Source of the DNA: Candidatus Bathyarchaeota archaeon
Lineage (GTDB): Archaea > Thermoproteota > Bathyarchaeia > Bathyarchaeales > Bathyarchaeaceae
Length of the DNA: 64,000 nt
Assembly (NCBI GenBank): GCA_963772765.1
Contig: CAVYYP010000006.1
Location: 26,091 to 90,090 of the forward strand
Direction: 5' to 3'
The stretch's first letter is position 1. Each line of letters begins with the position of its first letter. The translations under genes and the position numbers were made by a program. This document shows positions 3,660 through 63,237 of this stretch, piece after piece. The notes under the pieces are model-generated. The model ran no database searches, was not told the origin of the DNA, and saw only the letters and a list, made by a program, of their open reading frames with translations.

Positions 3660-3872
3660 TTATTTGGGCGATTGGTAATCTAGGTCTATATATAAATTTT
3701 CATAGCAATCGCTATGATATAGTTTTGATGTTCCCGCATTCCTGTGGCCTTTCACCAATTCACCCATCTTAAGATCGCCTCCACATTTTTTACAAACCAA
3801 TTTACCTTTGAGATGCAAAAGACGGTTGTAGACACCTTTTCTTAAAGTATATTGAATCATGATTTTCACCAA
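3660..3872 (-). CDS. small basic zinc-ribbon-like protein (hypothetical)
   Basis: 70-aa ORF with CKKCGG...HSDC metal-ligand pairs. The real start is probably the internal ATG (MIQYTL). Confidence 0.4.
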   Translation of the reverse strand: MVKIMIQYTLRKGVYNRLLHLKGKLVCKKCGGDLKMGELVKGHRNAGTSKLYHSDCYENLYIDLDYQSPK

Positions 3873-4239
3873 AAAAATTTTGAATGAGAAAGATATTTCG
3901 GGCTCATAGCTTTCCCACTAATCGTCTTCGTCTTCATCTTCATCGTCTTCTTCCCAATCGTCATCTTCTTCTTCAAACATCAAAACAATCCACACCTCTT
4001 ATAGTTGATTCAACAATAACATGAATATCTGGGTTTAGGTTGTAAAATAACCTTTTTTTGTGTCTTAAAACTTAAACTAAACCCATTTCTATCCTGTTTT
4101 AAGATTAATAAGCAAATTTAAGGCATGTGGGTTAAATTTTAACTTTTTATGGTATTCCCTACTGCTTTTTGTTTTTGCCTAGGTAATTTGCTTCTTGAAC
4201 ACAAAATTACCAAGGCAGCGTGCGCTATGTATCTTAGCC

Positions 4240-9236: not shown

Positions 9237-9302
9237 GTCAAAGATTCTTGACAAACAAAATCAGTTATGTTTAGTTAATGTTTCTTGACAAAAACCCTTT
9301 TC
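9237..9302 (+). promoter_or_regulatory. conserved ~65-nt upstream module, copy C
   Basis: GTCAAAGATTCTTGACAAACAAAATCAGTTATGTTTAGTTAATGTTTCTTGACAAAAACCCTTTTC, ending 22 nt before ATG 9325. About 85% identical to copy B in the same gene-relative orientation. Confidence 0.6.
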
Positions 9303-9324
9303 ATATCATCTGACTAAGGTATTA

Positions 9325-10384
9325 ATGGTGCCCATGGTGAGAATTAGCAGGGTAGTTCTCATTTTATTGTTTGTTCAAATGTTTCTTGTTGTGCATTTGC
9401 CTGTAGCATACGCGGTTGAGTTGACGGTACCAGAGAAGACCTTGGCTTTTTTGGAAGAAGTGGCAATGTTAGACATGACAAAATATAATGCAACATTAGA
9501 AATATTTGATGCTCGTTACCCCGACGAGTTAGATGGTTTGGTCCAGCATAATGTGTATTATATTCTTGTTTCCGATGAAAACGAAATGGAAGCAGCTTTT
9601 GGTTTCAAAAACGAATCCTTTGCACACTGTATGTTAGGAACCCTCACTTCCCCAATTTATTCTCAACCCCAACCAATCAACATAGTTGATTTTGCCAAAG
9701 GTTTTCTGCAGAGATACCAAAGTTACATTGGAGACGCAATCTTTGATGGTGTAAAAGATTATGATGAAGCAAGAAGTATACTAGACACGGTTGATGTAAC
9801 AAAAAATGTATCAATCAATTCCGATCGTGTAAAGCTTGAAGTGGTTAGCAGAACAGAGTATACTGCATTGATTTGGGATGTACGTTTTGAACGGTGTGCC
9901 ATTTCCATGGATGACCCTCGAGTTTCGTAATGGATCAGTTTGTGGTTTCGATGACAGCTGGCGCCTCTATACGGCTGGTAGCACAGACATAAAAATTTCT
10001 AGGGAAGAAGCTGTATACATTGCATTGGAATATTTAGAAGACTTCTCTTGGACTGTGGGAGATCAAGAGATAACAGATTTTGAGATACTAGAAGAACCAC
10101 GAAATATAGAATTGTTTGCAACTAGAAGCAGAGAACCTCTAACAGTATATCCCTATTGGCGTATTGAATTATATCTCGACACAGTTTACCCCGGAAACGT
10201 TAACCGTATATCCTTGGCAATCTGGGCCGACACAGGAGAAATAATTTCTTGCATTCCCCTAGGAGGAGGCGGAGTACCTCCAATCCCAGAATTTCCGTCA
10301 TGGACACCTCTGTTGATTACACTTGTTGTTGCTTTATTTTCTGTCATTTACAAAAAAATGAGTTGGAAAGAGCTGATGAAATGA
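9325..10384 (+). pseudogene. secreted PEF-CTERM protein (PepSY-like region), split by one frameshift
   Basis: ORF 9325..9930 carries only the signal peptide (MVPMVRISRVVLILLFVQMFLVVHLPVAYA). ORF 9878..10384, in another frame, carries only the C-terminal IPEFPSWTPLLITLVVALFSVIYKK sorting signal. The two overlap at 9878-9930. Confidence 0.65.
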
Positions 10385-11431
10385 ATAGAATCAAATCAAC
10401 AGTCGTTGTATTACTGATTCTTTCCCTTGCTTTGGTTACTTTTCCTCAAGTTAATTTAGTTAAAACTGAACCGAACACGATTGTTGTTCCAGATGATTAT
10501 GCTACTATTCAAGAAGCTATCAACAGTGCAACTGGGGGTGACACAGTTTATGTTAGGAAAGGTGTTTATCATGAAAACTTGGGAATAAACAAACCGATAT
10601 TTTTGATAGGAGAAGAAAGTTCAACAACAATCGATGGAAACACCTCACAAAGCTATAGGGTGCCAATAAACATCAACACCTCAAATGTTACTGTTTCTGG
10701 TTTTACTCTTAGTTATGGCTATGCAGGAATCCAATTTCATGGTGTAGGAAATTGTACTGTAGCGGAAACAGAATAACAAATGGTCAGTTTGGAATAGAGG
10801 GGAAACATGGAATAACATAACTGATAATATTTTTGAGAACATAGGAGTTGGAGGTGCTATACGATTTGACGGTTCAACTCACAATTTTGTTCATAAAAAT
10901 TATTTCAGTTCCTGTAATGAGGGTGTCCAAATTATGTGGGGTAGCAACTACAATACAGTTACCGAAAATACTATCGTAAACTGTAAGAATCAGGGTGTTA
11001 GGCTGCAAGAATCTGACTGGAATATAGTGACAGAAAATACAATAAAGAACAATGGAATTGGAATTAGCATTTACAGAGCTAATACCAATTTTATAGAAAA
11101 AAATAATTTCATTGATAATAACCAAGAAGTTGTAGCAAGTGAGTCATATGCACTTGCATGGGGATATGGTTATTCTTTAAACAGTTGGAAAGAAAACTAT
11201 TGGAGTAATTATACCGGTTCAGATAACGATGGAGATGGAATAGGAGACACCCCTTACGAAATTAATGAGGTTAATCGAGACAATTATCCACAAATAGAAC
11301 CAATTGACATGCTTGTACTAATCCCAGAGTTTCCATCATGGACACCTTTACTGATTATGATTGCCGTGGTAGCTCTTACTGTAATTTACAGGCGAAAGCT
11401 AACTCCAAAGAATCAGGGGATAAGAGACTAG
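10381..11431 (+). pseudogene. right-handed beta-helix (NosD-like) PEF-CTERM surface protein with two frame breaks
   Basis: ATG 10381 overlaps the previous stop (ATGA). MNRIKSTVVVLLILSLALVTFPQVNLVKTEPNTIVVPDDYATIQEAI runs in frame 1 to 10776. Homology continues in frame 3 (NRITNGQFGIEG), then frame 2 (WNNITDNIF...NYWSNYTGSDNDGDGIGDTPY...IPEFPSWTPLLIMIAVVALTVIYRRK). Confidence 0.7.
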
Positions 11432-13377
11432 TGAAATCGTCGTCTATAGTTGTTCTGTTACTTCTTTCTTCTATTGTTTTTGTTTCTCTTCAACAAATTA
11501 AAGCAGAGTCTAAAACGATTGTCGTTCCCGATGATCATGTCACTATTCAAGAGGCTATTGACAATGCATCTGAAGGTGACACAATTTTCGTGAAAAAAGG
11601 AAACTATGATGGACCTATAGGTGAAACCTTACTAATTGATAAGACAATCTCGCTAATAGGTGAAGGTTCTTCGGTAATTGGCGAAGACACTACAACATTA
11701 AATTTACATCCACTTTTACTCAATACAACCATCTTTGGTCAACCTTATCCAAAATATAACACATCACTTATTATAAAATCCAATAACGTTACAATCTCAG
11801 GTTTCACAATTAAAATTCCGCCTTCTCCATCTGGGGGAGGTGGAGGAGCCTCTGTAATCGGTAATGGAACTCAAATCGTCGATTGTATTATCAACATACC
11901 AGACATATCCTTGCAAGGTTCTTGCTCAAAAATCACAACAACACAGTTGTTTATTAGTAATCTAGCAATTAGAGGATCAAATCAGAGTATTACTAAAAAT
12001 ATACTTTTTAACGGAGATTTGGAAATAACCAGTTCCTTTAACAATATAATCGAAAATGACATTGGCAAAGAAATACGTTTGAATGGATCATATAACAAAA
12101 TTGTTGGCAACTCATTTTATAGAATTTTCTTGGAGCATTCAGATTTAAACACAATTTCTTACAATAATTTTAGCTGTATTTGGTTGGGTATTTATGGTCA
12201 TACTTGCTCAAATAACACAGTATTTGGAAACATCTTGGATGGAGGCTACATTTGGGGCGTTTTAATGGGTGACGGAGCCCATAACGTCTTTTATGACAAT
12301 ATTATCAAGAATTTTGGTGGAAGCCATGATGGGTATGGTGTGGCAATTGGCGGAAACCATTTAGTGGCTGAAAATAACACTTTTTTTCATAACATCTTTT
12401 TGGACAACAACAAGAATGTCGGATATAATTGGGACCAACTTGGAACAGGCAATTTCTGGGATAATGGAATTGAAGGTAATTATTGGGATGATTATACGGG
12501 TACAGATGCAAATGGAGATGGAATTGGGGACGCTCCTTACATTATTGATGACAAAAATCAAGATAATTTTCCATTAATGAAACCACCCATAATTCCGGAG
12601 TTTTATTCATGGTTACCTGAAGATCAAAATTATCAAGAAATTACCGTCAGGACTGATGGAAGTATTGAACCGGATACAAATTTGCTTGAAAGAAATGGGA
12701 ACACTTACACCTTTAAGGGAGACATTTTTGGCACTATTATGGTTCAAAAAGGTGGTATCACAATTGACGGCGCAGGATATACTCTTCAAGGAAAGAAAGA
12801 AGTTGGTAACGTTGATGAAAGGGGCGTATATTTGGTTGGACCTGACAGGTCTAGTCCGTTGTGTAGAAATGTTGTTGTAAAGAATTTGAGAATTGTTAAT
12901 TTTTGGGAAGGCATATTCTGTATTGGTTCAAGCAACAACAGCATAATAGGTAATTACTTTGAAAATGCAGGTATCCATCTTTTAGGTAGTCCAAACTATG
13001 GCCCAGACTTAATTAAGGGCAATATTTTCGACGGTTCTGTTATTTTTGTTGATTATAATACAGGAGGGACAGATGTTATTACTGAAAACAATTTTTTTGA
13101 TGGTTATGTAATTGTTGGTTTGTCTGTTGTCCCTATTGTGGAAAGAAATTATTGGAGTGATTACAACGGAACAGATAGTGATGGAGACGGCATAGGAGAT
13201 ACTCCATACGTTTCTTCATATGTTTTAGATGAACCAGTTCAAGATAATTATCCAATGATGTCTCCATTGTACATAGAAGTAATCTCAGAATTTCCCTCTT
13301 GGTTTCTATTTCCACTGTTCATCATATCAACGTTAGTTATGATTATTGTTAGGAATATGATTAGAAAGAAGGATTAA
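11431..13377 (+). CDS. double-module beta-helix PEF-CTERM surface protein
   Basis: In-frame GTG 11431 overlaps the previous TAG. Signal peptide, AESKTIVVPDDHVTIQEAIDNASEGDTIFV cap, two NYW(D/S)DYxGTDxxGDGIGDxPY modules, and a terminal ISEFPSWFLFPLFIISTLVMIIVRNMIRKKD. Confidence 0.8.
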   Translation: MKSSSIVVLLLLSSIVFVSLQQIKAESKTIVVPDDHVTIQEAIDNASEGDTIFVKKGNYDGPIGETLLIDKTISLIGEGSSVIGEDTTTLNLHPLLLNTTIFGQPYPKYNTSLIIKSNNVTISGFTIKIPPSPSGGGGGASVIGNGTQIVDCIINIPDISLQGSCSKITTTQLFISNLAIRGSNQSITKNILFNGDLEITSSFNNIIENDIGKEIRLNGSYNKIVGNSFYRIFLEHSDLNTISYNNFSCIWLGIYGHTCSNNTVFGNILDGGYIWGVLMGDGAHNVFYDNIIKNFGGSHDGYGVAIGGNHLVAENNTFFHNIFLDNNKNVGYNWDQLGTGNFWDNGIEGNYWDDYTGTDANGDGIGDAPYIIDDKNQDNFPLMKPPIIPEFYSWLPEDQNYQEITVRTDGSIEPDTNLLERNGNTYTFKGDIFGTIMVQKGGITIDGAGYTLQGKKEVGNVDERGVYLVGPDRSSPLCRNVVVKNLRIVNFWEGIFCIGSSNNSIIGNYFENAGIHLLGSPNYGPDLIKGNIFDGSVIFVDYNTGGTDVITENNFFDGYVIVGLSVVPIVERNYWSDYNGTDSDGDGIGDTPYVSSYVLDEPVQDNYPMMSPLYIEVISEFPSWFLFPLFIISTLVMIIVRNMIRKKD

Positions 13378-13378
13378 C

Positions 13379-14440
13379 ATGAGAAACCTATCAAATATAA
13401 TTGTGTTTCTTTGTTTGCTTCTTTTAATTCCTCCTTTATCTGTTGTTTACGCAATTCAAGATTCTTGGGAAACTTTAGCGCCATCACCAATAACTCATTT
13501 CATAGGTTCTGCTGAGATAGATGAAAAAATATACCTTGTTGGAAGTAATGTAAATTCGAAATATGATCCTGAAACAAACACTTGGACGCCATTGACTCCT
13601 CCACCAATTTCCAACTCTTGGAGTGATGTTGTTGTTTGTCAAAACAAAATCTATCTAATAGGTGGAAATGCGTCAAAACCAACCCAAGTTTATGATCCTA
13701 TTTCTGATACTTGGGAGAATAGAACTTCAATACCTACAACAAGAAGCGCACTGGAAGCTAATGTTGTAGATAACAAAATCTATGTAATAGGTGGACAAAT
13801 GCTTGCAGGTTTATACATTATTAATCCTTCGAGTGCAAATGATGTTTATGATCCAGCAACCGATTCATGGTCCAAAATGGCATCAATTCCTGTACCAGTT
13901 ATGGGGTATGCTTCTACAGTTTTAGATGGCAAAATTTACATAATCTCAGGAGGTAACACAGGAGGACCAGACTACGAACCTACAAATCTGGTTCAAATTT
14001 TTGATCCAAAAACAAACCAATGGACAAACGGTACAAATATTCCTACTGGTGTTGTCTCTGCTAAAGCATGTTCAACAACTGGATTATTTGCACTAAAACG
14101 GATCTATGTGTTGGGTGGGACAGTAACTTCTTATGCTCGTTGGGCTGCCTACAATGTCATTAACTTAATTCAAATATATGATCCAGAATCTGATATTTGG
14201 ACCAACGGTTTGGCTATGCCAAGTTCACGTTTCTTCTATGGGGCTATCTGTCTAAACGATGAAATCTATGTAATTGGAGGTATAAATGGAGAAAATTATT
14301 TGGATGTAAACGAAAAATATACACCACTTGATTACATCCCAGAGTTTCCTTCATTAACACTTTTGGTTGCTGGTTTCTTTGTTATCTCTGTAATATCGAT
14401 ATTTTATAGGCGCCATTTTAACCCGAGGAGGAGAAAATGA
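13379..14440 (+). CDS. Kelch-repeat beta-propeller protein with PEF-CTERM-like anchor
   Basis: Signal peptide; six blades marked by KIYLVGS/KIYLIGG/KIYVIGG/KIYIISG/RIYVLGG/EIYVIGG; C-terminal IPEFPSLTLLVAGFFVISVISIFYRRHFNPRRRK. Confidence 0.8.
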   Translation: MRNLSNIIVFLCLLLLIPPLSVVYAIQDSWETLAPSPITHFIGSAEIDEKIYLVGSNVNSKYDPETNTWTPLTPPPISNSWSDVVVCQNKIYLIGGNASKPTQVYDPISDTWENRTSIPTTRSALEANVVDNKIYVIGGQMLAGLYIINPSSANDVYDPATDSWSKMASIPVPVMGYASTVLDGKIYIISGGNTGGPDYEPTNLVQIFDPKTNQWTNGTNIPTGVVSAKACSTTGLFALKRIYVLGGTVTSYARWAAYNVINLIQIYDPESDIWTNGLAMPSSRFFYGAICLNDEIYVIGGINGENYLDVNEKYTPLDYIPEFPSLTLLVAGFFVISVISIFYRRHFNPRRRK

Positions 14441-16269
14441 AGAAACTCAAATTAACAGTCGTTGTATTATTGGTTTTTTCTCTTGTTTTAGTTACTTTTC
14501 CCCAAGTTAATTTAGTTAAAGCTGAACCGAACACGATTGTTGTTCCCGACGATTATGGTTCTATCCAAGAAGCTATTGACAATGCATCTGAAGGAGATAC
14601 AGTATATGTGGAAAGTGGAGTGTATATCGAAAATCTTGTTATTAACAAACTTATTTCACTAGTAGGCAAAAACAAAGATACAACAATAATTTACTGCAAT
14701 GACAACATTCATCCCACAATTCTGGTAAGCAAAAACGGAGTGAACATTACAGGTTTCACCATACAAAACAATGTTCCATCTCCTTCAAATACTCGTGGCG
14801 GACTTGCAGCCGTGCATTTGCTTCATGTGAGCTATTGCAACATATACCAAAACATTATGGTTACCAGTGGATATGGCGTCTGGCTCTATAACTCTCATTA
14901 CAACAACATATTTGACAATACCATAAAAAATACAAATTACGGAATTTTTGTCGAATCCTCCTTAAACAACACCATAACGCGAAATACAGCTTCAAAGGGT
15001 TGGAATGGAATCTGGCTACAGACATCCTCAAACAACATATTTAGAAACAACAATATGACAGATAATTATTGCAACTTTGCAGTCTCAGGTACTGAACTGT
15101 TGCACTATTATAATGATGTAGATAAGTCAAACCTAGTTAATGGAAAAAGAATTCATTATCTTACTGACCAAGAGAATATAGAAATAAGTTCTTCATTTTT
15201 TCCAGATTTAGGGCTCCTAGTTCTCGTAAATTGCAGAGAAATAACAGTCAAAAACTTGAACATCGTAGACAACTTTTTTGGAATTCTTCTCTTCAATACC
15301 TTAAACTCTACAATAACAAATAACTACATAGGAAACAACAAAAAGGGAATATGGCTCAAATCCTCCAACAGCATAACGATTTGCGATAACAATTTAGATT
15401 CAAACAGCGATGACGGAATTCGACTTGAAAATTCGAAGAACATACTCGTTAGAAACAACACGGTACAGAACACAGGATTTAATGGCATATACCTTGGAGG
15501 AGGGTCAGATAACAACTACATAATTGAAAACATAATGACCAAAAATGGTAACAAAGCCATCAATCTTGAGTCTTCCTCCAATAACAACATAATAAATAAC
15601 GAAGTGACCAACAGTTATTTCGCTGTCAGACTCTATACATCCACCTACAACAAGATAGAAACAAACAGAATAAATTCACCCAAATCTGAAAATGTAAACT
15701 TAATGCATTGTTATCAAGGTGTTGTTATTGACCATCATTCTGACAACAATATCATTGTTAGAAATGTAATTTCAAATAATTTGGAATACGGTATTAAAAT
15801 TCAGTCTTCATCTCAAATCATTATAAGTGAAAACATCATTTCAGCCAATAAGAAGGGTATCGACCTTAGTTCTTCTTCAAGTAACACTATCACAGCAAAT
15901 AACATTAGCGAGTCAAGTGAATTTGCCCTCGGCTTATTAAGTTCTAATGATACCGTTTTTCACAGCAACAATTTCATCAACAATGTGAAACAAATTTACC
16001 ATTATAGCACACGTACCACCTCAGTGAACCTTTGGGATAACGGTACAACAGGTAACTATTGGAGTGATTACGTTGGACAGGACGTCAATAACGATGGCAT
16101 AGGAGATTCGCCATATGTCATTAACGAATATAACCAAGACAACTATCCACTAATTCAACCCGTAATAGTTCCAGAATTTCCTTCATGGACAATTCTGCCT
16201 TTGATTTTAACCATTACACTATTTTCAATAATTTTCAAAAGAAAGCTACACAAAGCTAAGGTCTCTTGA
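14437..16269 (+). CDS. beta-helix repeat PEF-CTERM surface protein
   Basis: ATGA overlap with the Kelch gene and a GGAGGAG SD. The N-terminus is nearly identical to gene 10381. Many NxIxxN beta-helix rungs, NYWSDYVGQDVNNDGIGDSPY, and VPEFPSWTILPLILTITLFSIIFKRKLHKAKVS. Confidence 0.85.
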   Translation: MKKLKLTVVVLLVFSLVLVTFPQVNLVKAEPNTIVVPDDYGSIQEAIDNASEGDTVYVESGVYIENLVINKLISLVGKNKDTTIIYCNDNIHPTILVSKNGVNITGFTIQNNVPSPSNTRGGLAAVHLLHVSYCNIYQNIMVTSGYGVWLYNSHYNNIFDNTIKNTNYGIFVESSLNNTITRNTASKGWNGIWLQTSSNNIFRNNNMTDNYCNFAVSGTELLHYYNDVDKSNLVNGKRIHYLTDQENIEISSSFFPDLGLLVLVNCREITVKNLNIVDNFFGILLFNTLNSTITNNYIGNNKKGIWLKSSNSITICDNNLDSNSDDGIRLENSKNILVRNNTVQNTGFNGIYLGGGSDNNYIIENIMTKNGNKAINLESSSNNNIINNEVTNSYFAVRLYTSTYNKIETNRINSPKSENVNLMHCYQGVVIDHHSDNNIIVRNVISNNLEYGIKIQSSSQIIISENIISANKKGIDLSSSSSNTITANNISESSEFALGLLSSNDTVFHSNNFINNVKQIYHYSTRTTSVNLWDNGTTGNYWSDYVGQDVNNDGIGDSPYVINEYNQDNYPLIQPVIVPEFPSWTILPLILTITLFSIIFKRKLHKAKVS

Positions 16270-16295
16270 TGAAGCGCCCTGTTTTTAGGTCTCTG

Positions 16296-17015
16296 TATCG
16301 AATTTGTATTGTCTATGTAAATGCTGATGCCAACTCCATTATTCCTTACCGTATTTTCTGACACAGAGTTCCAATCAGATTCTTGTAATCTTATTTCAAC
16401 ATCATTACAATCCAAAATCGTGTTCTCAGTAATTGTATTGTAGTGGCTCCCCCACATGACTTGGACACCTTCAGGTACAGAAATTGATAAAATTTCTTTG
16501 AACAATATTATGGCTTGAACCATCAAACCTAATTGCACATCCAAGTCCAATTTTCTCAAAAATATTATCTGTTATTTTATTCCAATTACCACCTCGAATT
16601 CCAAATTGACCATTGGTTATCATGTTTTCCGAAATTGTGCAATTCTCTTCTCTTTGAAATTGGATTCCAGCATAACCATAGCTTAAGGTGAAACCTGAAA
16701 CTGTAACATTAGAGCAAAAGATGTTTATTGGCACCCTATAGCTCTGAGAAGTATTACCATCAATAATTGTTGAATACATATTTTCACCAATTAAACGAAT
16801 TGGAATACGAATGCCCAAATTTTCATGGTAAACACCATTCTTCACATAAATTGTGTCACCAGAATTGGCATTTTGAATTGCTTCTTAAATAGTGGAATAA
16901 TCGTCTGGAACAACAATTGTCCTCGGTTCTGCATTTACTACACCAATCTGTGGAAAAGTAACCATAACAAGAGAAAGAACCAGTAATGCAACGAATGTTG
17001 ATTTGATTCCTACAT
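16296..17015 (-). pseudogene. inverted, 3'-truncated remnant of a beta-helix PEF-family paralogue
   Basis: Minus-strand translation parallels gene 10381 (…TFPQIGVVNAEPRTIVVPDDYSTI*EAIQNANSGDTIYVKNGVYHENLG…ITNGQFGIRGGNWNKITDNIF…EGVQVMWGSHYNTITEN). The start is disrupted (ATGTAGGAATC versus ATGAATAGAATC). TAA at 16887-16885 replaces the conserved Gln. There is one frameshift near 16480. No DGDGIGD or PEF tail remains. Confidence 0.75.
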
Positions 17016-18703: not shown

Positions 18704-19258
18704 GTGACAGAGGAACACTCTTTCTATATGGAGAGTCTTCCAGAGGGGAGCAGAATCGAACAATTATGCAATGAATTAAAGAAATTTCTGACATCTGATA
18801 TTGAGAATCTTCAGCGTTTCCTATTGAAATTATTTGAAACTTGTTATTGTTTTGTGTTTGAAAATCATCAACCATTATTTTCTCCTAAAATTGAAATCAA
18901 TCTAATCTATCAAACAAAGCTATATGAGAAAAAAGTTAAAGAAAACAGCGCAAAAATCAAAGAGCCAGCAAAAGACAAATCATTCGCATTTTATTTGGCA
19001 AATAATGCCAAAGGAACCATTTTCATCAATGTGGAAAAGCTACTATTTTTGTTAGATAAAAGTTATTCAACGTTCATACTAAATTTGGTAATGACCTATT
19101 TTCATGAGATTCTCCATTGTTGCTACCTAAATTTGAGGACCGAAAAAGAAATCTTTAGCATCGAATGTTTACTGGTTGAGAAGTTTTTGGGAATAAATCT
19201 TCCAGAAGAACTGGAGAAACTACAGTCAAAACACCTTCACAAACATGCGCGCGCCTGA
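18704..19258 (+). CDS. hypothetical protein with an HExxH motif
   Basis: 184 aa. The only recognisable element is LVMTYFHEILHCCY (HEILH), a possible minimal zinc-metallopeptidase motif. Confidence 0.4.
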   Translation: MTEEHSFYMESLPEGSRIEQLCNELKKFLTSDIENLQRFLLKLFETCYCFVFENHQPLFSPKIEINLIYQTKLYEKKVKENSAKIKEPAKDKSFAFYLANNAKGTIFINVEKLLFLLDKSYSTFILNLVMTYFHEILHCCYLNLRTEKEIFSIECLLVEKFLGINLPEELEKLQSKHLHKHARA

Positions 19259-19494
19259 ATCACATTCTTCTTAGAATGAGATCGTTTTATAACCGACCAT
19301 AAGAACTACAAATCTATAGTTAACTAATCCCAACTGAACAATATTTTCTACAGAAGCAAACCGAGAAAGGAAATAAAAATCCAAATTTAGCCTTCATAAT
19401 ATAATAACACTCGAATGAACTATTATTGTAACCTGCTGAGAGTGACAAATCTTGGAACAAATTCTAGAATTATTGAGGACAATATTAGATTCGG

Positions 19495-19740
19495 GTGGTA
19501 CTAATACCAGGTTTGGCTTTAGCCTTTGGATTTTACATAGCCTATGTCTTTTTATCAGCAAAAAACGATGTTCCAATGACAAAAGAAGAAGCTGAAACTC
19601 TTTGGAAATTTCATAAACAAAAAGATTGCTGCAAAGCTAAAACATGGCAGGAAATAACTAAGAAAAACAAACTAGTTGGATATGAATGTGAATGTGGATT
19701 TAAGCACATTCAGAAGAAGCATCTAGTAACTGTTGGCTAA
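19495..19740 (+). CDS. small membrane-anchored Cys-rich protein (hypothetical)
   Basis: N-terminal TM helix followed by CCKAK...ECECGFKH. Confidence 0.35.
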   Translation: MVLIPGLALAFGFYIAYVFLSAKNDVPMTKEEAETLWKFHKQKDCCKAKTWQEITKKNKLVGYECECGFKHIQKKHLVTVG

Positions 19741-19853
19741 AATTTTTGATTTACTTGCCTCTGTCTCATAAGAAAACTAAATCTATAGTGGACTCTGAGA
19801 GATTCAAATTTTATCAGAATGACTCTTACGTAACGAAGGAGACAGCATCACGT

Positions 19854-20366
19854 TTAATCTGCAGAACACCATCCACTTTTTTTTAGAAGAACCAAAGTTT
19901 TCTTTATTTCTTCACACCAATCTATCACCATTTTTTCTACTTCTCTTTTATCCTCAATAGTATTACTAACAGCCAATCCCTGTAATACGGAACAAAAACC
20001 AGTAGTTTTTCTCAAATTCTCAAAACTCTTCTCTGGCTTTTTACCACCCAACGTTATAAAAAAAGCTCCCTTTTTCTGAGAAAAATCATTCAAAGACAAA
20101 AATGTCCTAATTGCCGGAGTAATCTTACCAGCCCATACTGGAGAACCAACAACAATAAAATCATATTCATCAATAGACTTTGAAACTTCAATTTCAGTAA
20201 GTTTTTCTCTAAAAGAAGCTGCTCCACCTTTTAGATAAATTAATTTACCTTTTTTATGCCTCTTATCAACTACTTCACACAAATCTGCACCCAATTGATC
20301 AGCAATTATCTTGGCCACAAATTCAGTACTTCCAGTTAACGAAAAATAAACAACTAAACTTTTCAT
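19854..20366 (-). CDS. flavodoxin-fold protein
   Basis: MKSLVVYFSLTGSTEFVAKIIADQLGA... and FIVVGSPVWAGKITPAIRTFL are typical of flavodoxin-like FMN-binding proteins. Confidence 0.75.
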   Translation of the reverse strand: MKSLVVYFSLTGSTEFVAKIIADQLGADLCEVVDKRHKKGKLIYLKGGAASFREKLTEIEVSKSIDEYDFIVVGSPVWAGKITPAIRTFLSLNDFSQKKGAFFITLGGKKPEKSFENLRKTTGFCSVLQGLAVSNTIEDKREVEKMVIDWCEEIKKTLVLLKKSGWCSAD

Positions 20367-20864: not shown

Positions 20865-21351
20865 TCATCTAGGTAGGTCTATTCCATTGCATTTAATCGC
20901 AATTTTCGGAGCCAAGGAGAACGCAAAGTAGGTCTGCGCCAACAACAATGTTTCAATTCGGTCAATATTACCAAGGAGACGAATTTTACCGATAAGATGA
21001 GAAACCTGGGATAAGTTCTTGAACCTTGCCCAAACGAAGAAATCGTAATCTCCAACGAGTTCAACAATTAGATATAGTTCTGGCATCTGCATCAGGCTCT
21101 TCATTACATCTTCTTTTTTTACTTCTGGTGCAAGAGACAGCATAAAGAACGTTGTACCTTTGTCACCCAATTTCTTTCCATCTACCAACACCGAACACAC
21201 CTTAATTAGTTCCTTCTTTTTTCATTCTTTCATATCTTTTTCCAACGGTTTGGTGAGACACACCAATGTTCTTCGCTATCTGGGAAAAAGGCATCTGTGC
21301 ATCCCCCATCAGTTCCGTAAGAATCTTGATATCAACTTCGCCCATTGTCAT
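20865..21351 (-). pseudogene. Lrp/AsnC-family transcriptional regulator, one frameshift
   Basis: HTH half from own translation: MTMGEVDIKILTELMGDAQMPFSQIAKNIGVSHQTVGKRYERMKKEG, which stops at TAA 21204-21202. Removing one A near 21210 joins it to LIKVCSVLVDGKKLG...LIVELVGDYDFFVWARFKNL (RAM domain, ORF 20865..21200). Confidence 0.75.
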
Positions 21352-21832
21352 CGACCTTTGCTATGTCTACTTGATTTAATGTTTTAGAGTAATTGTAATA
21401 CGGCTCTCCAGTCCATATGTTAACGGCGACTCGTTTTACCCCCTTAATGTTCTTAATGATCGCGGTAATCTTCTTGAGGTCCTCAATGTCGCTGTGCCCT
21501 AATGAGAGCACATAAATTATACCGTCCGATGCTCTCCGCACAAACAATCACTTTTGCCATCGTTCTTATTTTCTGCTTTATTTGAGGTTCTAGTGAATCT
21601 GTCACATCAATAAGTAGAGTCGCATAGAACGGAAGACCGAATATTTTAGGATCGACCAAAGGCAGGTCCCTACGATAACGCCCTCTTGCCTTAACAGTTT
21701 TATTCTTCTGAGAACTGCGCTTGATGTTAATCCACACTTCTTTGATATTTCTTTGAGACTTGACCGCGCATCTTCGATCAAAATACTCAAAATCATTAAG
21801 TCGAGTTTATCAAGTTGAAATCCATTAGTCAT
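21332..21832 (-). pseudogene. Lrp/AsnC-family transcriptional regulator, two frameshifts
   Basis: Three consecutive fragments in three frames: LDKLDLMILSILIEDARSSLKEISKKCGLTSSAVLRRIKLLRQEGVIVG, then LVDPKIFGLPFYATLLIDVTDSLEPQIKQKI, then IIYVLSLGHSDIEDLKKITAIIKNIKGVKRVAVNIW. Confidence 0.7.
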
Positions 21833-21883
21833 AGTTCTAAGAAAGTGAACCTTTTCATATATTCTTTATGTAGTTGAATTGTG

Positions 21884-21897: not shown

Positions 21898-22026
21898 AAA
21901 TATGACAAAAATTGCGTTAAAACTATTATTTAACTAATTATTTCAATTTTTTTGTTTAAATCATGACAAAGTTTAAAAAGTAATTGCGCCAAAAACAGAT
22001 GCTTTAGGGCAGGGTGGAGATAAAAA

Positions 22027-24678
22027 ATGGGAAATTTTAAAAGTCAAAAAAATACTTGCAGTTGCATTTGCTTTTGCATTTGTTATAGCTTCGTTAACAT
22101 CAATACAAATTCTAGTGAATGCTCAAGGGAGTGAAATCACAGGTGGACCTTTACCTGCAGGAGTAACACCAGAATGGACCGTTGAGACTGTCGCCTATCT
22201 CAGCTTTAGCCCGAACCCAATAGGAGTAAATCAGGAGCTCCTTATCAACCTGTTGACAACACCCGCACCAGGAGCAAATCGTGCACACACTGGATACACT
22301 GTAACAATTACGAAACCAGATGGATCAATCGAAGTAATTGGTCCCGTGAATTCCTATGTAGCAGATGGAACATACTGGTTCACATACGTTCCCGACCAAG
22401 TTGGCACATGGAAACTCAAGTTTGATTTCGCAGGAGATTATTACCCAGCTGGACGTTATGTCGATGGTGTATTGGACAATTCAGCTCCACCAGGATTTTC
22501 TCTTTTCGTACGTGATTACCCTGAAACATACTATTTGCCTGCATCTACTCCAGAACAAGAACTTGTTGTACAAGAAGATATAGTGTATTCATGGCCTCCT
22601 TCAGCTCTTCCAACCGACTACTGGACTAGACCAATATCGGTTGAAAACAGGGAATGGTTCATGATCGGAGGAAACTACCCCTACTCGTACTACAACAGCA
22701 TTCAAAACTACGCTGGTCCATTTGTGCATTAGGACCCAACACAGCACATATCCTTTGGAAACAACTAGGTGCACTGTCAGGATTAATCGGCGGCGAAACT
22801 GGAATCTATGGCATAGAAAGCGGAGGTGGCACTCCCAGCGTAATTTACATGGGACGATGCTATGAAACCAAGACGGTGCCAATCAATGGTGTCCCTACAA
22901 GCTGTGCTGTATGCTATGATTTGCGAACTGGAGAGCAGTACTATGCGATACCAATAGCCCAAGGCGGAGTAACCCCGTCATATCTATCATACTACAGAGG
23001 AACAGCAACCGGGGGACTTGGAGGAGAATCTGGCAGTTTCACAGTGGATTTGCTTACTATAAGTGATGGAAAGCTCTATAAAATAAATCCATTAACTGGA
23101 GCTGTCACTCTCGATGCGTCGATTTCACCAGTTACTACAGGTAGCTTTTACCACAACAATTTTGTGTTAAGCGTTCAAACAATTGGTTCTGGCCCCACCC
23201 GCGAATACCGCCTAATTAATTGGACAACAGAAGGAACCAGCACCAACTTCGCTAGCAGAGTACTTGGGAATGTGAGTTGGCCAGTTAGCACTGCACCCGG
23301 ATCACTTGGTCTGATTGCCGATTACGATACAGGTATCTGCGTTGGAACAATAGCTGGCATCTTCGGTGCAGGTTCAGGAGGAAAAGCTGTAACTGGAGAC
23401 TTTGGATTAGCTGGTGGAGCATATGGAACACGCATTGTAGGTATAAGCATGGTAACTGGAGCAGTGCTTTACAACTTCACCGTCGACGACACATCATTTT
23501 ACCCCTTGTCTGATACAGTTGGAGAAGGAAAAATCGCCATACCTATGGACAATAGAAAGCTATATTGTTTCGATCTGATCAGCGGAGATTTGGAGTGGAT
23601 AAGCACAGAGCTTGACTATCCATGGGGAGGTTATGGAGCTTATTCGGCAGCATCAGCCTATGGTAACTTCTATTGGCCAACATACGATGGAGTAGTTGCT
23701 TTTGACTGGGAGACTGGAGAAAGAGTTTGGCACTTCCAATATGTAAGTGTTCCATTTGAAAGTTCTTATTCTATGGCTAACGGCACTGCGCAAAACCCAT
23801 TCTTCGGCCGACCACTTGTTGCAGATGGAAAAATCTACGTAGCAAATACTGAACACACTCCAACACAGCCCGTTAAAAGGGGTTGGAGAATTTTCGCTCT
23901 TGACGCAATTACAGGTGAAGAGATTTGGAACGTAACAGGCTTGATGACACCTGGTACAGTAGCCGATGGATATCTTACAGCCAGCAACTCCTACGATGGA
24001 TATATGTACGTTTTCGGCAAGGGATTAACCGCTACAACAGTTACTGCACCTGACCTTTCAGTACCTAAAGGAACAGCTTTCACAATAAAGGGAACAGTCT
24101 TAGATCAGTCTCCTGCTCAACCAGGAACTCCTTGTGTTTCTAAAGACTCAATGACAATACAAATGGAATACTTACACATGCAGCATCCAATTGATGGACT
24201 TTATCACGACCAAATAATTACTGGTGTTCCAGTAACACTATCAGCCATAGCTGAGGACGGCACCTATGTCGACATTGGCACTGTAACTTCAGATGGATAT
24301 ACAGGCGCTTTCGGAGCATCATGGATCCCAACAACAGAAGGCACATACAAAATTATTGCATCTTTTGATGGAGACGATTCATACGGCAGCTCAAATGCAG
24401 CAACATATGTAACAGTTGGTCCAGCAGCTTCAGCAGCAGCTCCAATTGAACCAGAACAACCTACGCCAACTGAACCTACACAACCAACACCAAGTGAACC
24501 TACACCAGAAGAACCAACACCTGAACAGCCCACACCCGAAGAGCCAACACCAGAAGAACCCGAACCAACAGTACCAGAACACCCACTCATCAGCGCAGAA
24601 CTAACAATCGCCATAGCAGTAGTAGCTGCATGCACTATTGGTGCAGTAGCCTACATCGCACTAAGACGACGAAAATAA
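22027..24678 (+). pseudogene. large secreted beta-propeller (PQQ/BamB-like repeat) surface protein, decayed paralogue of 49672..52302
   Basis: ATG 22027 after GGTGGAG gives MGNFKSQK. The frame breaks in the A7 run at 22046-22052 and resumes as ILAVAFAFAFVIASLTSIQILVNAQG. A second break near 22725 joins PFV(H*) to GPNTAHILWKQ. Collinear with the intact paralogue along its whole length. Confidence 0.75.
24442..24582 (+). repeat. Pro/Thr/Glu-rich tandem-repeat linker
   Basis: PIEPEQPTPTEPTQPTPSEPTPEEPTPEQPTPEEPTPEEPEPTVPEH, made of degenerate 15-nt units. Absent from the paralogue. Confidence 0.8.
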
Positions 24679-25084: not shown

Positions 25085-25522
25085 GTAAAAACCAAAAACA
25101 GCAGGGAATACCATAAAAGGTTAAATATTAGACCCAAAACCAAACGTACCTATTTTCTTGTTCTTTGGAGCTTCAGAATAAAAATTGTCGTTGTTGTAAC
25201 TTTAGTAATATCGGTTGTTCCATTTATTTACGTTTTTTCTGACCACATCAATTTCATATATGTTGCACAAATCATAGAGGTGATAGGAAGTGGCATGGTT
25301 TTCCCCTCATGGATGGCTATCTGGGCTAGAAACGCTGATATTAATAACAGAAGTTTTGAATGGAGCCTATATTCCACATTAACAGGAATAGGAACTGGAG
25401 CAGCCGCACTAATTGGGGCTACAATCGCATAATTGTCTGGATTTGTTTACACATTCGTCATCGTTGGTGCAATATCACTTTTTGGATGCTTCATTCTGAT
25501 TGGCTTAGAAAGCAAACAATAG
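25085..25522 (+). pseudogene. C-terminal remnant of an MFS-type transporter with an in-frame TAA
   Basis: Own translation: ...IVVVVTLVISVVPFIYVFSDHINFIYVAQIIEVIGSGMVFPSWMAIWARNADINNRSFEWSLYSTLTGIGTGAAALIGATIA*LSGFVYTFVIVGAISLFGCFILIGLESKQ*. TAA at 25430-25432. No N-terminal half lies upstream. Confidence 0.5.
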
Positions 25523-25601
25523 CTATCCAAGAATAAGACATGGAAAGAATCAAGATATTTAAAGAAAACAATATTTAGGCTTCAGTACATTCCAATGTTG
25601 C

Positions 25602-26889
25602 GTGGAAAATTTGGGTTTCGAAAAAAGGACAAATTATCATGTGTGCCATATCGCTTCCAGTGATTCAGTAAAACAGCACAAACTGCGAAAAAGGATAGCT
25701 TGGCTGTCAAGCAAAGAAGGACGAGAAAATGAACTGATTTCAATTTACATTCCCTCAAAGTACAGCAGTAGAGAATGTGCTCAGCAAACTCAAGAACAAG
25801 TCTAAAAGCATACACAAAGAACGGGAAAGTGACGGTCTTCAAGATGCAATTAAGAATACAATCCAGCATCTGAAACAATAAAATGAAATCCCAGAGAACG
25901 GACTGGCACTGTTTGCTGGAAACATAGTTGAGGACAATCAGGAAGTGTTTGTTGTAGAAGAGATTGTTCCGCCAGAAAATATTGGTACGTATGTTTGTGA
26001 GATTTCTCATCGTTTCCATTTGGAGCCTTTAAGGCAGATGGTACGAAATCCAAGAATCGTTGGGTTTATAGTTCTGGACTCAAAGGAAGCAAGTTTTGGT
26101 TTACTAAATGGTGAAGTTTTTGAAGTAGTCAAAAAAATTTCATCGGGCATTTCAGGAAAGTCTGGAAAAGGCGGGCAGAGCCAACGACGTTACGAACGAG
26201 AACGTGACATGGAACTTGTAGCCTTTTTTCATCGAGTCGCAGAATATGCATCGAAAGAATTTCTTGAAAAGATAGAGGTCATGGCTCTGATAGTAGGTGG
26301 TCCAAGCACTACAAAAAACGGTTTTGTAAATGGCAGTTATCTTCATTATCAGCTAAAAGATGGTCTCTTGAGTGTAGTTGATACCCAAACTGTTGGAAAA
26401 GAAGGCTTGAATGAGATGCTTGACAAGTCCTCTGAAACCTTGAAGAACATGTGTTTCCCTGAAGAAAGAATGCTAATGCAGCGACTTTTACAAGAATTAC
26501 ACAAACAAAACGGTTTGATATCATACGGACTACAACCCGTGCTAACTGCAATAAACAAGGGAGCAGTGGAAATTGTGCTGGCAACAGACACCACAGAATT
26601 CATTGAAATCGCTGTTACATGCAAAATGTGTGGCTTGTCTAAAAAGAGGATAGTAACTAGTAGCGAGAAGATTCAAGCAATAAACGAAATGGCATCTGCG
26701 TCCTGTGGTCAATGCAATTCAAAGGAATATGAAGTTGAAGAAAAAGACATCATAGACGTCTTAGAAGACGCAGCCTCAAAAACTGACGCAAAAGTTGAAG
26801 TCATATCTACAGACTCGGAAGAAAAAAATCAGCTCACTCTTCTAGGAGGAGTTGCAGCGCTTCTAAGATACAGACCGACAGAAAATTAA
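25602..26889 (+). pseudogene. prf1: peptide chain release factor aRF1 homologue, interrupted as written (one frameshift plus one in-frame TAA)
   Basis: Frame 3 gives KQHKLRKRIAWLSSKEGRENELISIYIP. Frame 1 from about 25757 gives STAVENVLSKLKNKSKSIHKERESDGLQDAIKNTIQHLKQ, then TAA at 25879-25881, then NEIPENGLALFAG...YVCEISHRFHLEPL...SGKGGQSQRRYERERD (GGQ) and a CxxC...CxxC insert in domain 3. Track ORFs 25602..25805 and 25945..26889 are the fragments. Confidence 0.75.
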
Positions 26890-26897
26890 CCTTTGAG

Positions 26898-27893
26898 CTA
26901 TATTACAGCAATTAGAACTATGTAAATGACATATCCGAAAACAGCTGATAGAGGCGCAGACAGAATCCATGCCCAGATGATTCTTCGCATTGTTCCCCAT
27001 TTTACTGCTCTTTTTCCACGGGTTAACCCTGCACCGATTAGAGTTCCGTTGTCAACGTGAGTTGAGCTCATAGGAATTCCAAAAAAGGCTGCTGCACCCA
27101 AGACTAAAGAGCTTGACAGGTCGCTAGCAAAGCCTTGGTATGGTCGGACACGCATAATTTTTGTTGCCATTGTTTTTACTATGCGCCATCCTCCGAACAC
27201 GACTCCTGATGATAGAATCACGTATGATACGATGATGACCCAGAAGGGTATAACAAATTCGGATATGTAGCCGTAGTAGAACAGAATCATGGTGATTATG
27301 CCCATGACTTTTTGGGCGTCGTTTGTGGCGTCGGTTACTGAAAACAAAAACGTGGCAACAATCTGCAGCCGCTTGAAGCGTCTGTTCATTTTGCTTGCAG
27401 GCTGGTTTCGGAAGGCTCGTATTATCATACTTGTTATGGCAAAGGCTACCAGAATGGCGATAAACGGTGAAGTGATTAGCGGGATTACTATTTTGTTTAT
27501 GATTCCATCAACTTGTATTATTTCCCAGCCTCCAGCCGCAACGCCTGCTCCGATGAGTCCCCCGATTAGGACGTGGGTTTCAGAAATTGGCAGGGCGTAT
27601 ACCCAAGAGAATATTACATCAAAAATTAGGGCACCCAGAAGTGTTGCAACAATTACTTCTCCTGAAGCAAAGCCTTCGGTTATGATTCCTGTTCCTATGG
27701 TTTGGGCAACAGCAGACCCGAATATTGTCATGCCGATCAAGGAACCGACAGTGGAGATGACTATGGCTTGGTTGGTTTTTACTGCTCGTGTTGCAATTAT
27801 TCCTGCTGTGGCATATGCTGCGTCAGTGAATCCTGTCCAGAACCCGAAAATTATGGCTAGAATTACGGCGAAGATTACGATTAGGTCTATCAT
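26898..27893 (-). CDS. inorganic phosphate transporter, PiT family
   Basis: FWTGFTDAAYATAGIIATR and SVTDATNDAQKVMGII match the two PiT signature regions. About 10 TM helices. Confidence 0.85.
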   Translation of the reverse strand: MIDLIVIFAVILAIIFGFWTGFTDAAYATAGIIATRAVKTNQAIVISTVGSLIGMTIFGSAVAQTIGTGIITEGFASGEVIVATLLGALIFDVIFSWVYALPISETHVLIGGLIGAGVAAGGWEIIQVDGIINKIVIPLITSPFIAILVAFAITSMIIRAFRNQPASKMNRRFKRLQIVATFLFSVTDATNDAQKVMGIITMILFYYGYISEFVIPFWVIIVSYVILSSGVVFGGWRIVKTMATKIMRVRPYQGFASDLSSSLVLGAAAFFGIPMSSTHVDNGTLIGAGLTRGKRAVKWGTMRRIIWAWILSAPLSAVFGYVIYIVLIAVI

Positions 27894-27896
27894 AGA

Positions 27897-28523
27897 TCAT
27901 GCATTCTTTAAAACTATGTCTTGAATAACAAGGCAGACGTCTTCGCATTTGTCTGTGATTCCTTCAAGAAAGTCGTAGATTTCTTTCATGATAATTATTC
28001 GGATTGGGTCTTTTTCTTTGAAAAGCATAACCATGGAGTCGTCGTGCAGATCGTCGGCGATGTTTTCTAGGCTGTGGACTTTTTTGAAGCTTTTTTCGAT
28101 TTCGTCTTTTTTCATTTTCTGTATTTGCTTCAGGGCTTCGTTGACTTCTCTGACCTGTTTTTCGATTATGTCAGCAAATTTGATTATTGTATCGTCTCTT
28201 TTTTTTATTTCAAAAATGAAAATTCGATTTGCAACCGAGTCTATGAAGTCCAACACGTCGTCATACAGTGAAGTGAGTTTGGAGAGGTCTTCTTGGTCTA
28301 TGGGTGTAATGAAGGACTTGTGGAGTTTGTGTATCATCTTGTGGACGATTTCGTCGCCTTCATGTTCGATTCTGTGCATCTTTTTGATGTTTTCATCATA
28401 GTCGTTTGGCTGGTCTAGCATTTCTTTGAAAAGGGTAGCTGCTTCTAGAACGAGTTTCGATTGTTCTTTTAAAATATTGTAGAAGACCTTGTCCTGTGGT
28501 ATAATCCACTCTTTAAAGCTCAT
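27897..28523 (-). CDS. DUF47 / PhoU-like phosphate-transport accessory protein
   Basis: 208-aa helical protein (…FYNILKEQSKLVLEAATLFKEML…) immediately upstream of PiT, the standard DUF47-PiT pair. Confidence 0.75.
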   Translation of the reverse strand: MSFKEWIIPQDKVFYNILKEQSKLVLEAATLFKEMLDQPNDYDENIKKMHRIEHEGDEIVHKMIHKLHKSFITPIDQEDLSKLTSLYDDVLDFIDSVANRIFIFEIKKRDDTIIKFADIIEKQVREVNEALKQIQKMKKDEIEKSFKKVHSLENIADDLHDDSMVMLFKEKDPIRIIIMKEIYDFLEGITDKCEDVCLVIQDIVLKNA

Positions 28524-29234: not shown

Positions 29235-29702
29235 TTGAATGCAAAATATCAAGTATATAGAGATAAGGCAGGAAAATTTAGGTTTCGACTCAGAGCAGCG
29301 AACAATAAAATTGTAGCTGTTAGCGAGGCATACGAAAGCAAAACTGGATGCATGAACGGAGTCAAATCTGTTCAAAAAAACTGTGACGCTCATGTCGAAG
29401 ACAAAACAAAACCCATGGAAAAACTATCTAATCCAAAATACGAGGTCTTCACAGACACAGCAGGCGAGTTTCGGTTCAATCTAAAAGCATCCAACGGAGA
29501 GATCATAGCAGCAAGTGAAGGATATGAAACGAGAGAAGGAGTAATGAATGGAATTGAAGCAGTTCAACGAAGCTGTGACGCCGAAATCGAAGATTTCACT
29601 GTAGAGAAAGCTACAAAAGAGATGGATGAGACAGCAAGAATTGAAGAAGTCTGCAAAGAACCAACAACATGGACTACACAATACAGTCCTACTATTGGAT
29701 GA
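29235..29702 (+). CDS. tandem DUF1508 (YegP-like) domain protein
   Basis: Two repeats: YQVYRDKAGKFRFRLRAANNKIVAVSEAYESKTGCMNGVKSVQKN and YEVFTDTAGEFRFNLKASNGEIIAASEGYETREGVMNGIEAVQRS. The in-frame TTG at 29235 is a more plausible start than the track start at 29172. Confidence 0.75.
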   Translation: MNAKYQVYRDKAGKFRFRLRAANNKIVAVSEAYESKTGCMNGVKSVQKNCDAHVEDKTKPMEKLSNPKYEVFTDTAGEFRFNLKASNGEIIAASEGYETREGVMNGIEAVQRSCDAEIEDFTVEKATKEMDETARIEEVCKEPTTWTTQYSPTIG

Positions 29703-30024
29703 CTTACCAGCCTCTGTTAAATCAGACACCACAGTAACATTTACTGGAAAATTGACCGATCACGATACAGTAGAAGGCGTCGGATGCGCTGAAATATACA
29801 TCTATGAACAAGACCGCTCATTTATGAGAGATGACTTACTGGTATCCGGAGCAACAAACAATGACGGAACCTTCGGGATTGATTGGGCAGCAAAACAAAA
29901 AGACTTCTGGGACGACAAAATACAAGTCTACGCATTATTCAAAGGCACTGAAAATTACAACCCAGCAAAAAGCGACATAAAAAACCTAAAAGTCCTATGG
30001 TATGCCAAAGACCACCTAAAATAA
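29626..30024 (+). CDS. hypothetical beta-rich protein; possibly the frameshifted C-terminus of the DUF1508 gene
   Basis: Overlaps the preceding ORF by 77 nt in another frame. TVTFTGKLTDHDTVEGVGCAEIYIYEQD...GTFGIDW looks like an Ig/CarboxypepD_reg-like sandwich. Confidence 0.4.
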   Translation: MRQQELKKSAKNQQHGLHNTVLLLDDLPASVKSDTTVTFTGKLTDHDTVEGVGCAEIYIYEQDRSFMRDDLLVSGATNNDGTFGIDWAAKQKDFWDDKIQVYALFKGTENYNPAKSDIKNLKVLWYAKDHLK

Positions 30025-49336: not shown

Positions 49337-49671
49337 TCATCCTCGAGTTCGGATTGTTTTTCCTTTTTGATTTTGTTTTTGTGAATATTTGTTGTCAATC
49401 CTGTTTTGCAGATTAAACAATGATCGTAATGAGTCCTTCGTTATCGCATGATATTACTTCAGTGTTACAACTAAGTTGTAGTACTTCAGAAAAACTACAA
49501 ATAGATTTTTAAAAAAATCATAATTTTGTACCAAATATGTTGTGATTTTACAACAAATTAAGTTTTCAAATTGAAAATACATTAATTTCATCCATAACAA
49601 AGCTGTTTCATAGCAAAATATTAAATAGACTTCTTCATAACCATACGCGATATAAGGAGAAAAGAAAAAAA

Positions 49672-60209: not shown

Positions 60210-60415
60210 CTTATCGTTTCTCCTGATTGTTATTGGACAGCATGCTAGACTAAAAGCACACCTATAAGCATTATTGTATGAAAGACGATTTATGTTAAAG
60301 TTGTAATAATGCAAAGAACGTTGAATATACCGAGTGAATTGCTCAAAACGCTAAACTCAACTCTTTGCTTTCTTCGTGTCTAAACTATAGATGCAAATTA
60401 TGTATATGGAAACAA

Positions 60416-63143: not shown

Positions 63144-63237
63144 TCTAGAGAAAAACACAATAGTCATCAATACATCTCATTCTAAAGAGTTGAAAAAGGC
63201 ATTGAAGATCGAGGCAAACCACAGCACAAAACACAAG

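Follow-up and report, generated by a model that had tools for sequence, protein, structure and literature searches.

In bacteria, prfB has its frameshift site at an in-frame UGA, a position that different species share, and the bacterial aeRF1 homologue Balon reportedly occupies the A site independently of mRNA. In a/eRF1 proteins, the NIK and YxCxxxF motifs are universal, save in ciliate eRF1s and for a YxTxxxF variant in some Crenarchaeota (PMC2613156). Tetrahymena and Paramecium harbor second release-factor copies with a variant NIKS (eRF1-2) beside the main factor, while aPelota/Dom34, an a/eRF1-family paralogue without NIKS and YxCxxxF, works on ribosomes without stop-codon reading (PMC2613156). 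A literature search found no paper linking aRF1 or eRF1 with Bathyarchaeota, and a survey of release factors (PMC6514570) makes no mention of a paralogue of the kind described below; the family appears to be undescribed.

The locus studied here lies in a 64-kb stretch of DNA from Candidatus Bathyarchaeota, the whole of which is referred to as the window. At 25602-26889 (+), it carries an aRF1-type gene that has a single extra base at 25756-25758 and a TAA in frame at 25879-25881. In our judgment, this gene probably belongs to a divergent aRF1 paralogue family of Bathyarchaeia, of which the window copy has been knocked out.

An aRF1-type gene interrupted twice

Translation of frame 1 from the GTG at 25602 gives VENLGFEKRTNYHVCHIASSDSVKQHKLRKRIAWLSSKEGRENELISIYIPS, beyond which homology is lost. 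The +1 frame takes over with STAVENVLSKLKNKSKSIHKER (in its longer form, STAVENVLSKLKNKSKSIHKERESDGLQDAIKNTIQHLKQ), runs to HLKQ, meets the TAA, and continues with NEIPENG to the stop at 26887-26889. Owing to the +1 insertion and the TAA, the window copy thus lacks an uninterrupted reading frame. The repaired protein matches the aRF1_eRF1 profile TIGR03676 from end to end, scoring 349 bits where the cutoff is 234.7, and Pfam detects eRF1_1 weakly (25.8 bits), eRF1_2 at 117 bits, and eRF1_3 at 66 bits. Pfam, TIGR03676, and structure prediction (AF2 with Foldseek) agree on this three-domain architecture.

A preliminary description, made from the sequence alone, had reported an intact GGQ, a missing NIKS with KNKSKSIHKER in the place of TASNIKS, a +1 frame change near 25755-25760, and a TAA inside the gene. 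All of these were borne out, by the presence of GGQ at 26170-26178, by alignments to canonical aRF1, by an extra base relative to three relatives (L001, L157, and L158), and by translation, respectively. Comparison with profiles gave an aRF1 family match in a protein that has neither NIKS nor YxCxxxF. The parts of the gene, together with a transporter remnant upstream, are as follows.

25085-25429 (+): remnant of an MFS_1 transporter, covering positions 62 to 145 of the 347 of the Pfam MFS_1 profile
25602-25757 (+): 5' segment read in frame 1, GTG start through ...ELISIYIPS, by translation; aligns collinearly with the beginning of the P0001 gene, which is uninterrupted in L001
25644-25721 (+): family-specific N-terminal motif CHIASSDSVKQHKLRKRIAWLSSKEG, nearly invariant in 114 nonredundant family members
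25756-25758 (+): frameshift lesion, an extra base in an AAA run, from DNA alignments to L001, L157, and L158
25759-25878 (+): N-domain segment in the +1 frame, STAVENV...HLKQ, from translation and homologue alignment
25792-25824 (+): loop equivalent to TASNIKS, KNKSKSIHKER, from alignments to canonical aRF1 and the family conservation profile
25879-25881 (+): in-frame TAA nonsense codon; Lys (AAA) or Ala in the closest relatives
25882-26889 (+): remainder of the gene, comprising the last part of the N domain, the M and C domains, and the terminal TAA (26887-26889), from Pfam and 92% amino acid identity to P0001
25996-26016 (+): positions equivalent to YxCxxxF, C-E-I-S-H-R-F, ungapped against YRCDSRF of canonical Bathyarchaeia aRF1
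26170-26178 (+): GGQ, inside the family-invariant block GKGGQSQRRYERERDM (26164-26211)
26620-26715 (+): zinc-ribbon-like CxxC...CxxC insert of the C domain, also present in canonical Bathyarchaeia aRF1
26845-26871 (+): C-terminal GGVAALLRY motif of the aRF1/Pelota type, from alignment and PMC2613156

The aRF1 form of the last motif is AFGGIAAILRY (PMC2613156). At the position of the transporter remnant, relatives also have only MFS_1 fragments, of 80 to 187 amino acids (L001, L157, and the P0005 contig).

Comparison of the two lesions with relatives

A protein search returned five uninterrupted homologues of 423 to 431 amino acids (P0001 to P0005), with identities of 92, 88, 89, 87, and 83%. 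Scans of genome and metagenome contigs gave a best match of 75% identity; the closest DNA was obtained via the protein homologues instead and consists of four relatives (L001, L157, L158, and L159) with 87 to 92% nucleotide identity, in all of which the gene is uninterrupted. At the frameshift site, the window reads CTCAAAGTACA, versus CTCAACTACA in L001, L157, and L158, a net change of +1. At the TAA, L001 has CAAAAAAATG, versus CAATAAAATG in the window. Given the AAA of L001 and the Lys or Ala codon found at this position in the closest homologues, we conclude that a lysine codon, AAA, became TAA in the window. Neither lesion occurs in the four relatives or in about 150 other loci.

One other family member, L064, is frameshifted (10100-10120) about two codons from the place of the window shift, both sites lying just past a conserved LYIP strand. 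The two events are independent and opposite in direction, -1 in L064 and +1 in the window, and their proximity could be a coincidence or could reflect a local hotspot of mutation or error.

A family with a divergent N domain

Two collection scans yielded about 155 paralogue loci, nearly all of them in Bathyarchaeia MAGs and nearly all with uninterrupted genes. NIKS is absent from every homologue aligned. In an alignment of 114 nonredundant sequences, the loop equivalent to TASNIKS is 1 to 3 residues shorter and unconserved, the window residues aligned to NIKS being SIHK, and another residue takes the place of Thr in the G-T-E-L loop across the family. At the YxCxxxF positions, most members have Y-E-V-D-D-H-F and the subclade of the window has C-E-I-S-H-R-F, so that Val or Ile stands in for the Cys. 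The window sequence YVCEISHRF had been taken for an expanded YxCxxxF. However, the alignment to canonical aRF1 is ungapped and places C-E-I-S-H-R-F on Y-x-C-x-x-x-F with nothing inserted, showing that the expansion was a misregistration and that the upstream Y-V-C is coincidental.

Other parts of the protein are nearly invariant, namely, the N-terminal consensus C-Q-x-A-T-T-N-S-V-K-Q-H-K-L-R-K-x-I-A-W-L-S-D-K-E-G, the M-domain tip KGG-x-SQRRYERERDM, and the C-terminal GG(V/F)AALLRY. The family signature, C-[QH]-x-A-[TS]-[TS]-x-S-V-K-Q-H-K-L-R-K combined with GG-x-SQRRYERERDM, is present in the window as CHIASSDSVKQHKLRKRIAWLS and GKGGQSQRRYERERDM. Within the tip, 58 of 134 full-length members have a different residue in place of the Gln of GGQ (GGS, 42; GGW, 9; GGE, 3; GGA, 3; GGM, 1), while the flanking residues are invariant. 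The unusual N domain is a fixed trait of a selectively maintained Bathyarchaeia paralogue family and is not a sign of decay. One member, L074, has lost the zinc-ribbon insert as well.

Clustering at 50% reduced the family to one representative, and the next-best proteins were NIKS-bearing aRF1s with at most 44% identity. Among other cluster representatives, the aRF1-like proteins P0277, P0305, P0355, P0364, and P0375, one of them labeled bacterial, lack NIKS, YxCxxxF, or both, indicating that further divergent aRF1-like lineages exist. Others (P0241 to P0243, P0245, P0251, and more) are aRF1 representatives of 650 to 1450 amino acids with two or three separated match stretches; the breaks lie near the GGQ region, which suggests intein-containing aRF1 genes.

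Coexistence with canonical aRF1 and purifying selection

The relationship to canonical aRF1 is seen most directly on L051, the one contig on which both genes were observed together, which is 146 kb long and belongs to a Bathyarchaeota MAG. It carries the paralogue at 9974-11248 and, 7.6 kb apart, a canonical aRF1 at 18857-20131 with TASNIKS, YRCDSRF, and GGQ. Further canonical matches (P0132, P0125, P0127, P0182, P0172, and P0218) come from records other than the paralogue-bearing MAGs that were recovered. Canonical Bathyarchaeia aRF1 is highly conserved, the best 120 clusters all being at least 86% identical and several being named Bathyarchaeia or Bathyarchaeota by NCBI, and it stands in a conserved synteny downstream of FTR. 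Identities within the divergent family span 47 to 92%. Against TIGR03676, canonical aRF1 scores 517 bits and the paralogues 331 to 378 bits; since both types exceed the cutoff of 234.7, public annotation names both "aRF-1."

Several observations show that the family does not supply a sole essential terminator. Besides the co-occurrence on L051, five MAGs have two paralogue copies, and in the four pairs compared the copies are 69 to 91% identical and both are GGS. Proteins in which the Gln of GGQ is replaced are not plausibly the sole release factor of a cell. In addition, L148 combines an in-frame stop, GGS, and a frameshift, and L064 is frameshifted; such decayed members indicate that the gene is dispensable. 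A neighbor-joining tree placed the paralogue beside the canonical aRF1s P0244 and P0269 and not beside the L051 type, a placement that we distrust because of the long branch.

The paralogue family is nevertheless under purifying selection, with an omega of 0.15 to 0.22 (about 0.17) compared to 0.03 to 0.07 (about 0.05) for canonical aRF1. By domain, the omega of the paralogue is 0.24 (N), 0.10 (M), and 0.23 (C).

Recoding, altered code, inactivation, or assembly error

If the gene were the only aRF1 of the organism, its N domain would reflect changed stop-codon recognition or a reassigned TAA, and we consider this very improbable. A search of the 64-kb window by tblastn with four family members as queries found no second aRF1, and the repaired protein passes the equivalog cutoff of TIGR03676, both as expected of a sole factor. 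Yet L051 has a canonical aRF1 alongside the paralogue, and members with GGS, GGW, GGE, or GGA cannot be sole release factors. The N-domain changes, which had been proposed to track altered stop-codon recognition, are shared by a whole family that coexists with canonical aRF1 and do not carry that meaning. Stop-codon usage argues in the same direction. Among the 34 ORFs of at least 200 amino acids in the window, 19 end in TAA, 8 in TGA, and 7 in TAG, and EF-2 ends in TAA; TAA, the commonest terminator, is thus a real stop codon here and not a sense codon. The window contains no tRNA gene and no Rfam match, and the position of the TAA is a Lys or Ala codon in relatives. We give even less credence to a programmed +1 frameshift with readthrough that would autoregulate the factor as in bacterial prfB, an idea that the preliminary description had itself ranked last. 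The analogy suggests itself for a +1 shift in a release-factor-like gene, and L064 is broken at nearly the same place, but its shift goes the other way, both lesions are missing from the four relatives and the roughly 150 other loci, and a conserved signal is absent. A prfB-type site would, moreover, lie on an in-frame stop, whereas the shift site here is off any frame-0 stop, the next one being 45 nt downstream at 25803-25805. Since the lesions are unshared by relatives, recoding is unsupported.

For the lesions themselves, the explanation that we favor, and hold to be the probable one, is that the window gene is a recently inactivated accessory paralogue. Two recent mutations, a net +1 insertion after codon 52 and the change of a lysine codon, AAA, to TAA at about codon 93, would have inactivated the copy and left a young pseudogene in a stretch with several other frameshifted accessory genes. 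The earlier suggestion of a decaying second aRF1 paralogue is therefore the best supported of the three readings then offered, except that the odd motifs are fixed family features and not products of decay. The competing explanation, that the gene is intact in the organism and that errors of consensus or assembly, e.g., in a low-coverage long-read assembly, produced the extra base and the A-to-T change, strikes us as possible but clearly the less probable; errors had been considered before in what was thought to be an essential gene, whereas this one is probably not the essential release factor. The omega of the window copy versus its relatives (0.17 to 0.22) equals that of the relatives among themselves, and its private changes (9 synonymous and 10 nonsynonymous) are like those of sister lineages. 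The rest of the repaired gene is thus free of relaxed constraint, so that the lesions are either very recent or artifactual, and this is one point in favor of error. Others are the small insertions relative to intact orthologues in three neighboring genes within 8 kb, a clustering that would fit a poorly supported assembly region equally well; the finding that all 8 of the 8 indels versus L157 are insertions in the window; and the origin of the frameshifted L064 in a MAG of the MFD series, which we take to be nanopore assembled. Against error, the lesions compared (C to AG, a TT insertion, and a substitution) are not plain homopolymer-length errors, and about 9 kb of conserved genes (PHO4, PhoU, and the block from radical-SAM to EF-2) shows no frameshift relative to relatives. 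Under a uniform error rate, the chance that 4 lesions would all fall in 4.7 of 13.7 kb is about 0.014. Real decay is also favored by the clearly decayed family members L148 and L064. Finally, only accessory types are among the broken genes. At least four other accessory genes are frameshifted at 9 to 30 kb, while housekeeping genes (PHO4, PhoU, HAD, EF-2, ABC transporter genes, PFK, UbiA, aldolase, and phosphoglycerate mutase) are intact.

Broken genes and a possible variable island around the locus

A PQQ_2-type surface-protein gene at 21977-24675 (+) is split by a 2-nt insertion (TT) at 22729; its orthologue in L157 is intact (882 amino acids), and an intact paralogue lies in the window at 49546-52302. 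Downstream of the aRF1-type gene, a gene with two DUF1508 domains (29245-30021, +) has a 1-nt insertion at 29669 versus L158 and L159, the L159 gene being intact (252 amino acids). A cluster of NosD/right-handed beta-helix surface-protein genes at 9289-16884 encodes proteins whose tail, IPEFPSW...TM...RRK, resembles a sorting signal of the PEF-CTERM type, and includes split NosD-like genes at 10204-10773 with 10763-11428 (+) and at 16474-16884 with 16158-16571 (-). An Lrp/AsnC regulator at 20868-21865 (-) appears fragmented, with HTH_AsnC at 21605-21865, the ligand-binding domain at 20868-21221, and small ORFs in other frames between them.

L001 matches window positions 3825-4143 and 25167-26877 at sites about 1.1 kb apart, leaving an extra 21 kb or so in the window (4143-25167). 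Being rich in surface-protein genes and broken genes, this extra DNA looks like a variable island. L001 also lacks the PHO4/PhoU pair at 26898-28523, which L158 has.

Structure, gene neighborhood, and possible function

P0001 was modeled with AF2 (pLDDT, 76.5) and adopts the complete eRF1/aRF1 fold in the model. Foldseek ranked 4AF1 and eRF1 as its top matches, with Balon and Pelota weaker, and superposition of its N domain on that of eRF1 (2LLX) gave a TM-score of 0.81 (normalized to the target). The profiles of neighboring families fit poorly: the window protein scores 72.4 bits against the aPelota profile TIGR00111 (cutoff, 177.65) and 28.8 bits against the Balon/Rv2629 profile NF052289, where the range is 28 to 41 bits (cutoff, 320).

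No gene neighbor is conserved, the commonest one occurring at 17 of the 155 loci, and the gene neighborhood thus gives no support for the function proposed below. Local arrangements were seen in subclades. In one of them, the paralogue is preceded at a distance of a few tens of bases by a gene for tRNA-Leu(CAG) (L071, 9860-9947; L075, 2973-3060; L076, 9859-9946). Adjacency to EF-2 is limited to another, made up of more distant relatives (L002 to L004, the P0008 type), in which the paralogue has EF-2 on one side and a CYTH gene on the other. The window has 2.8 kb of unrelated ORFs between its EF-2 (57999-60314, -) and CYTH (63100-63744, +) genes, and its paralogue has moved beside the MFS remnant.

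aRF1 binds aEF1alpha, and the region involved also seems to be kept in the family. More generally, the family seems to have kept the aRF1 regions for docking on the ribosome and reaching the peptidyl-transferase center and to have lost those for reading stop codons. From motif loss alone, we infer, as the most economical reading, a stop-codon-independent function: family members would occupy the ribosomal A site with no stop codon being read and would serve as an accessory factor of the rescue or hibernation type, and not as a terminator, with the catalytic Gln being optional. In the window subclade, which has GGQ, the role may be catalytic. Termination would be carried out by a canonical NIKS/YxCxxxF/GGQ aRF1 encoded elsewhere in the genome. 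It is conceivable, though we would put it at slightly less than an even chance, that the family constitutes a third archaeal a/eRF1-type factor beside aRF1 and aPelota, acting in the A site without stop reading, in rescue or in Balon-like hibernation. Were this so, the window would hold a lineage that has just lost the factor.

Discussion

For the window itself, the outcome is negative, in that it holds no altered genetic code and no recoded release factor but either a broken accessory gene or an assembly error. The remaining interest is in the paralogue family and not in the lesions, which are ordinary damage or error in a probably nonessential gene. A large family of Bathyarchaeia proteins is annotated "peptide chain release factor aRF-1" without having any stop-codon recognition motif and, in 43% of cases, without the catalytic Gln. 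Through such annotation, marker-gene counts and inferences on termination in Bathyarchaeia can mislead. A codon-independent A-site factor, if confirmed, would be an archaeal counterpart to the rescue and hibernation factors derived from eRF1.

Of the known systems, prfB resembles the window gene in that a release-factor-type frame is broken by a +1 shift, but the shift of the window is absent in all close relatives and lies off any stop codon. Unlike the paralogue family, the eRF1-2 copies of ciliates keep YxCxxxF and GGQ and belong to lineages with reassigned stops, whereas all three stops are used here. With canonical aRF1 (TIGR03676; PDB 4AF1 and 3AGK), the family shares the eRF1_1, eRF1_2, and eRF1_3 domains, the GG of the M-domain tip, GGxAAxLRY, and the zinc-ribbon insert. 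It differs from canonical aRF1 in lacking TASNIKS, the Cys of YxCxxxF, and the Thr of the GTEL loop; in the Gln of GGQ, which is dispensable in 43% of its members; in evolving 3 to 4 times faster; and in coexisting with the canonical factor and being open to duplication or loss. The absence of NIKS and YxCxxxF is common to the family and aPelota/Dom34, but the N domain of Pelota is Sm-like, and a GGQ tip is entirely missing from it. Balon and Rv2629, the bacterial aeRF1 homologues (PDB 8RD8 and 8V9J), likewise combine the aeRF1 fold with loss of the stop-codon motifs and are among the structural matches; they are, however, bacterial and far more divergent (14 to 17% identity), while the GG tip and the residues flanking it do not vary in the Bathyarchaeia family.
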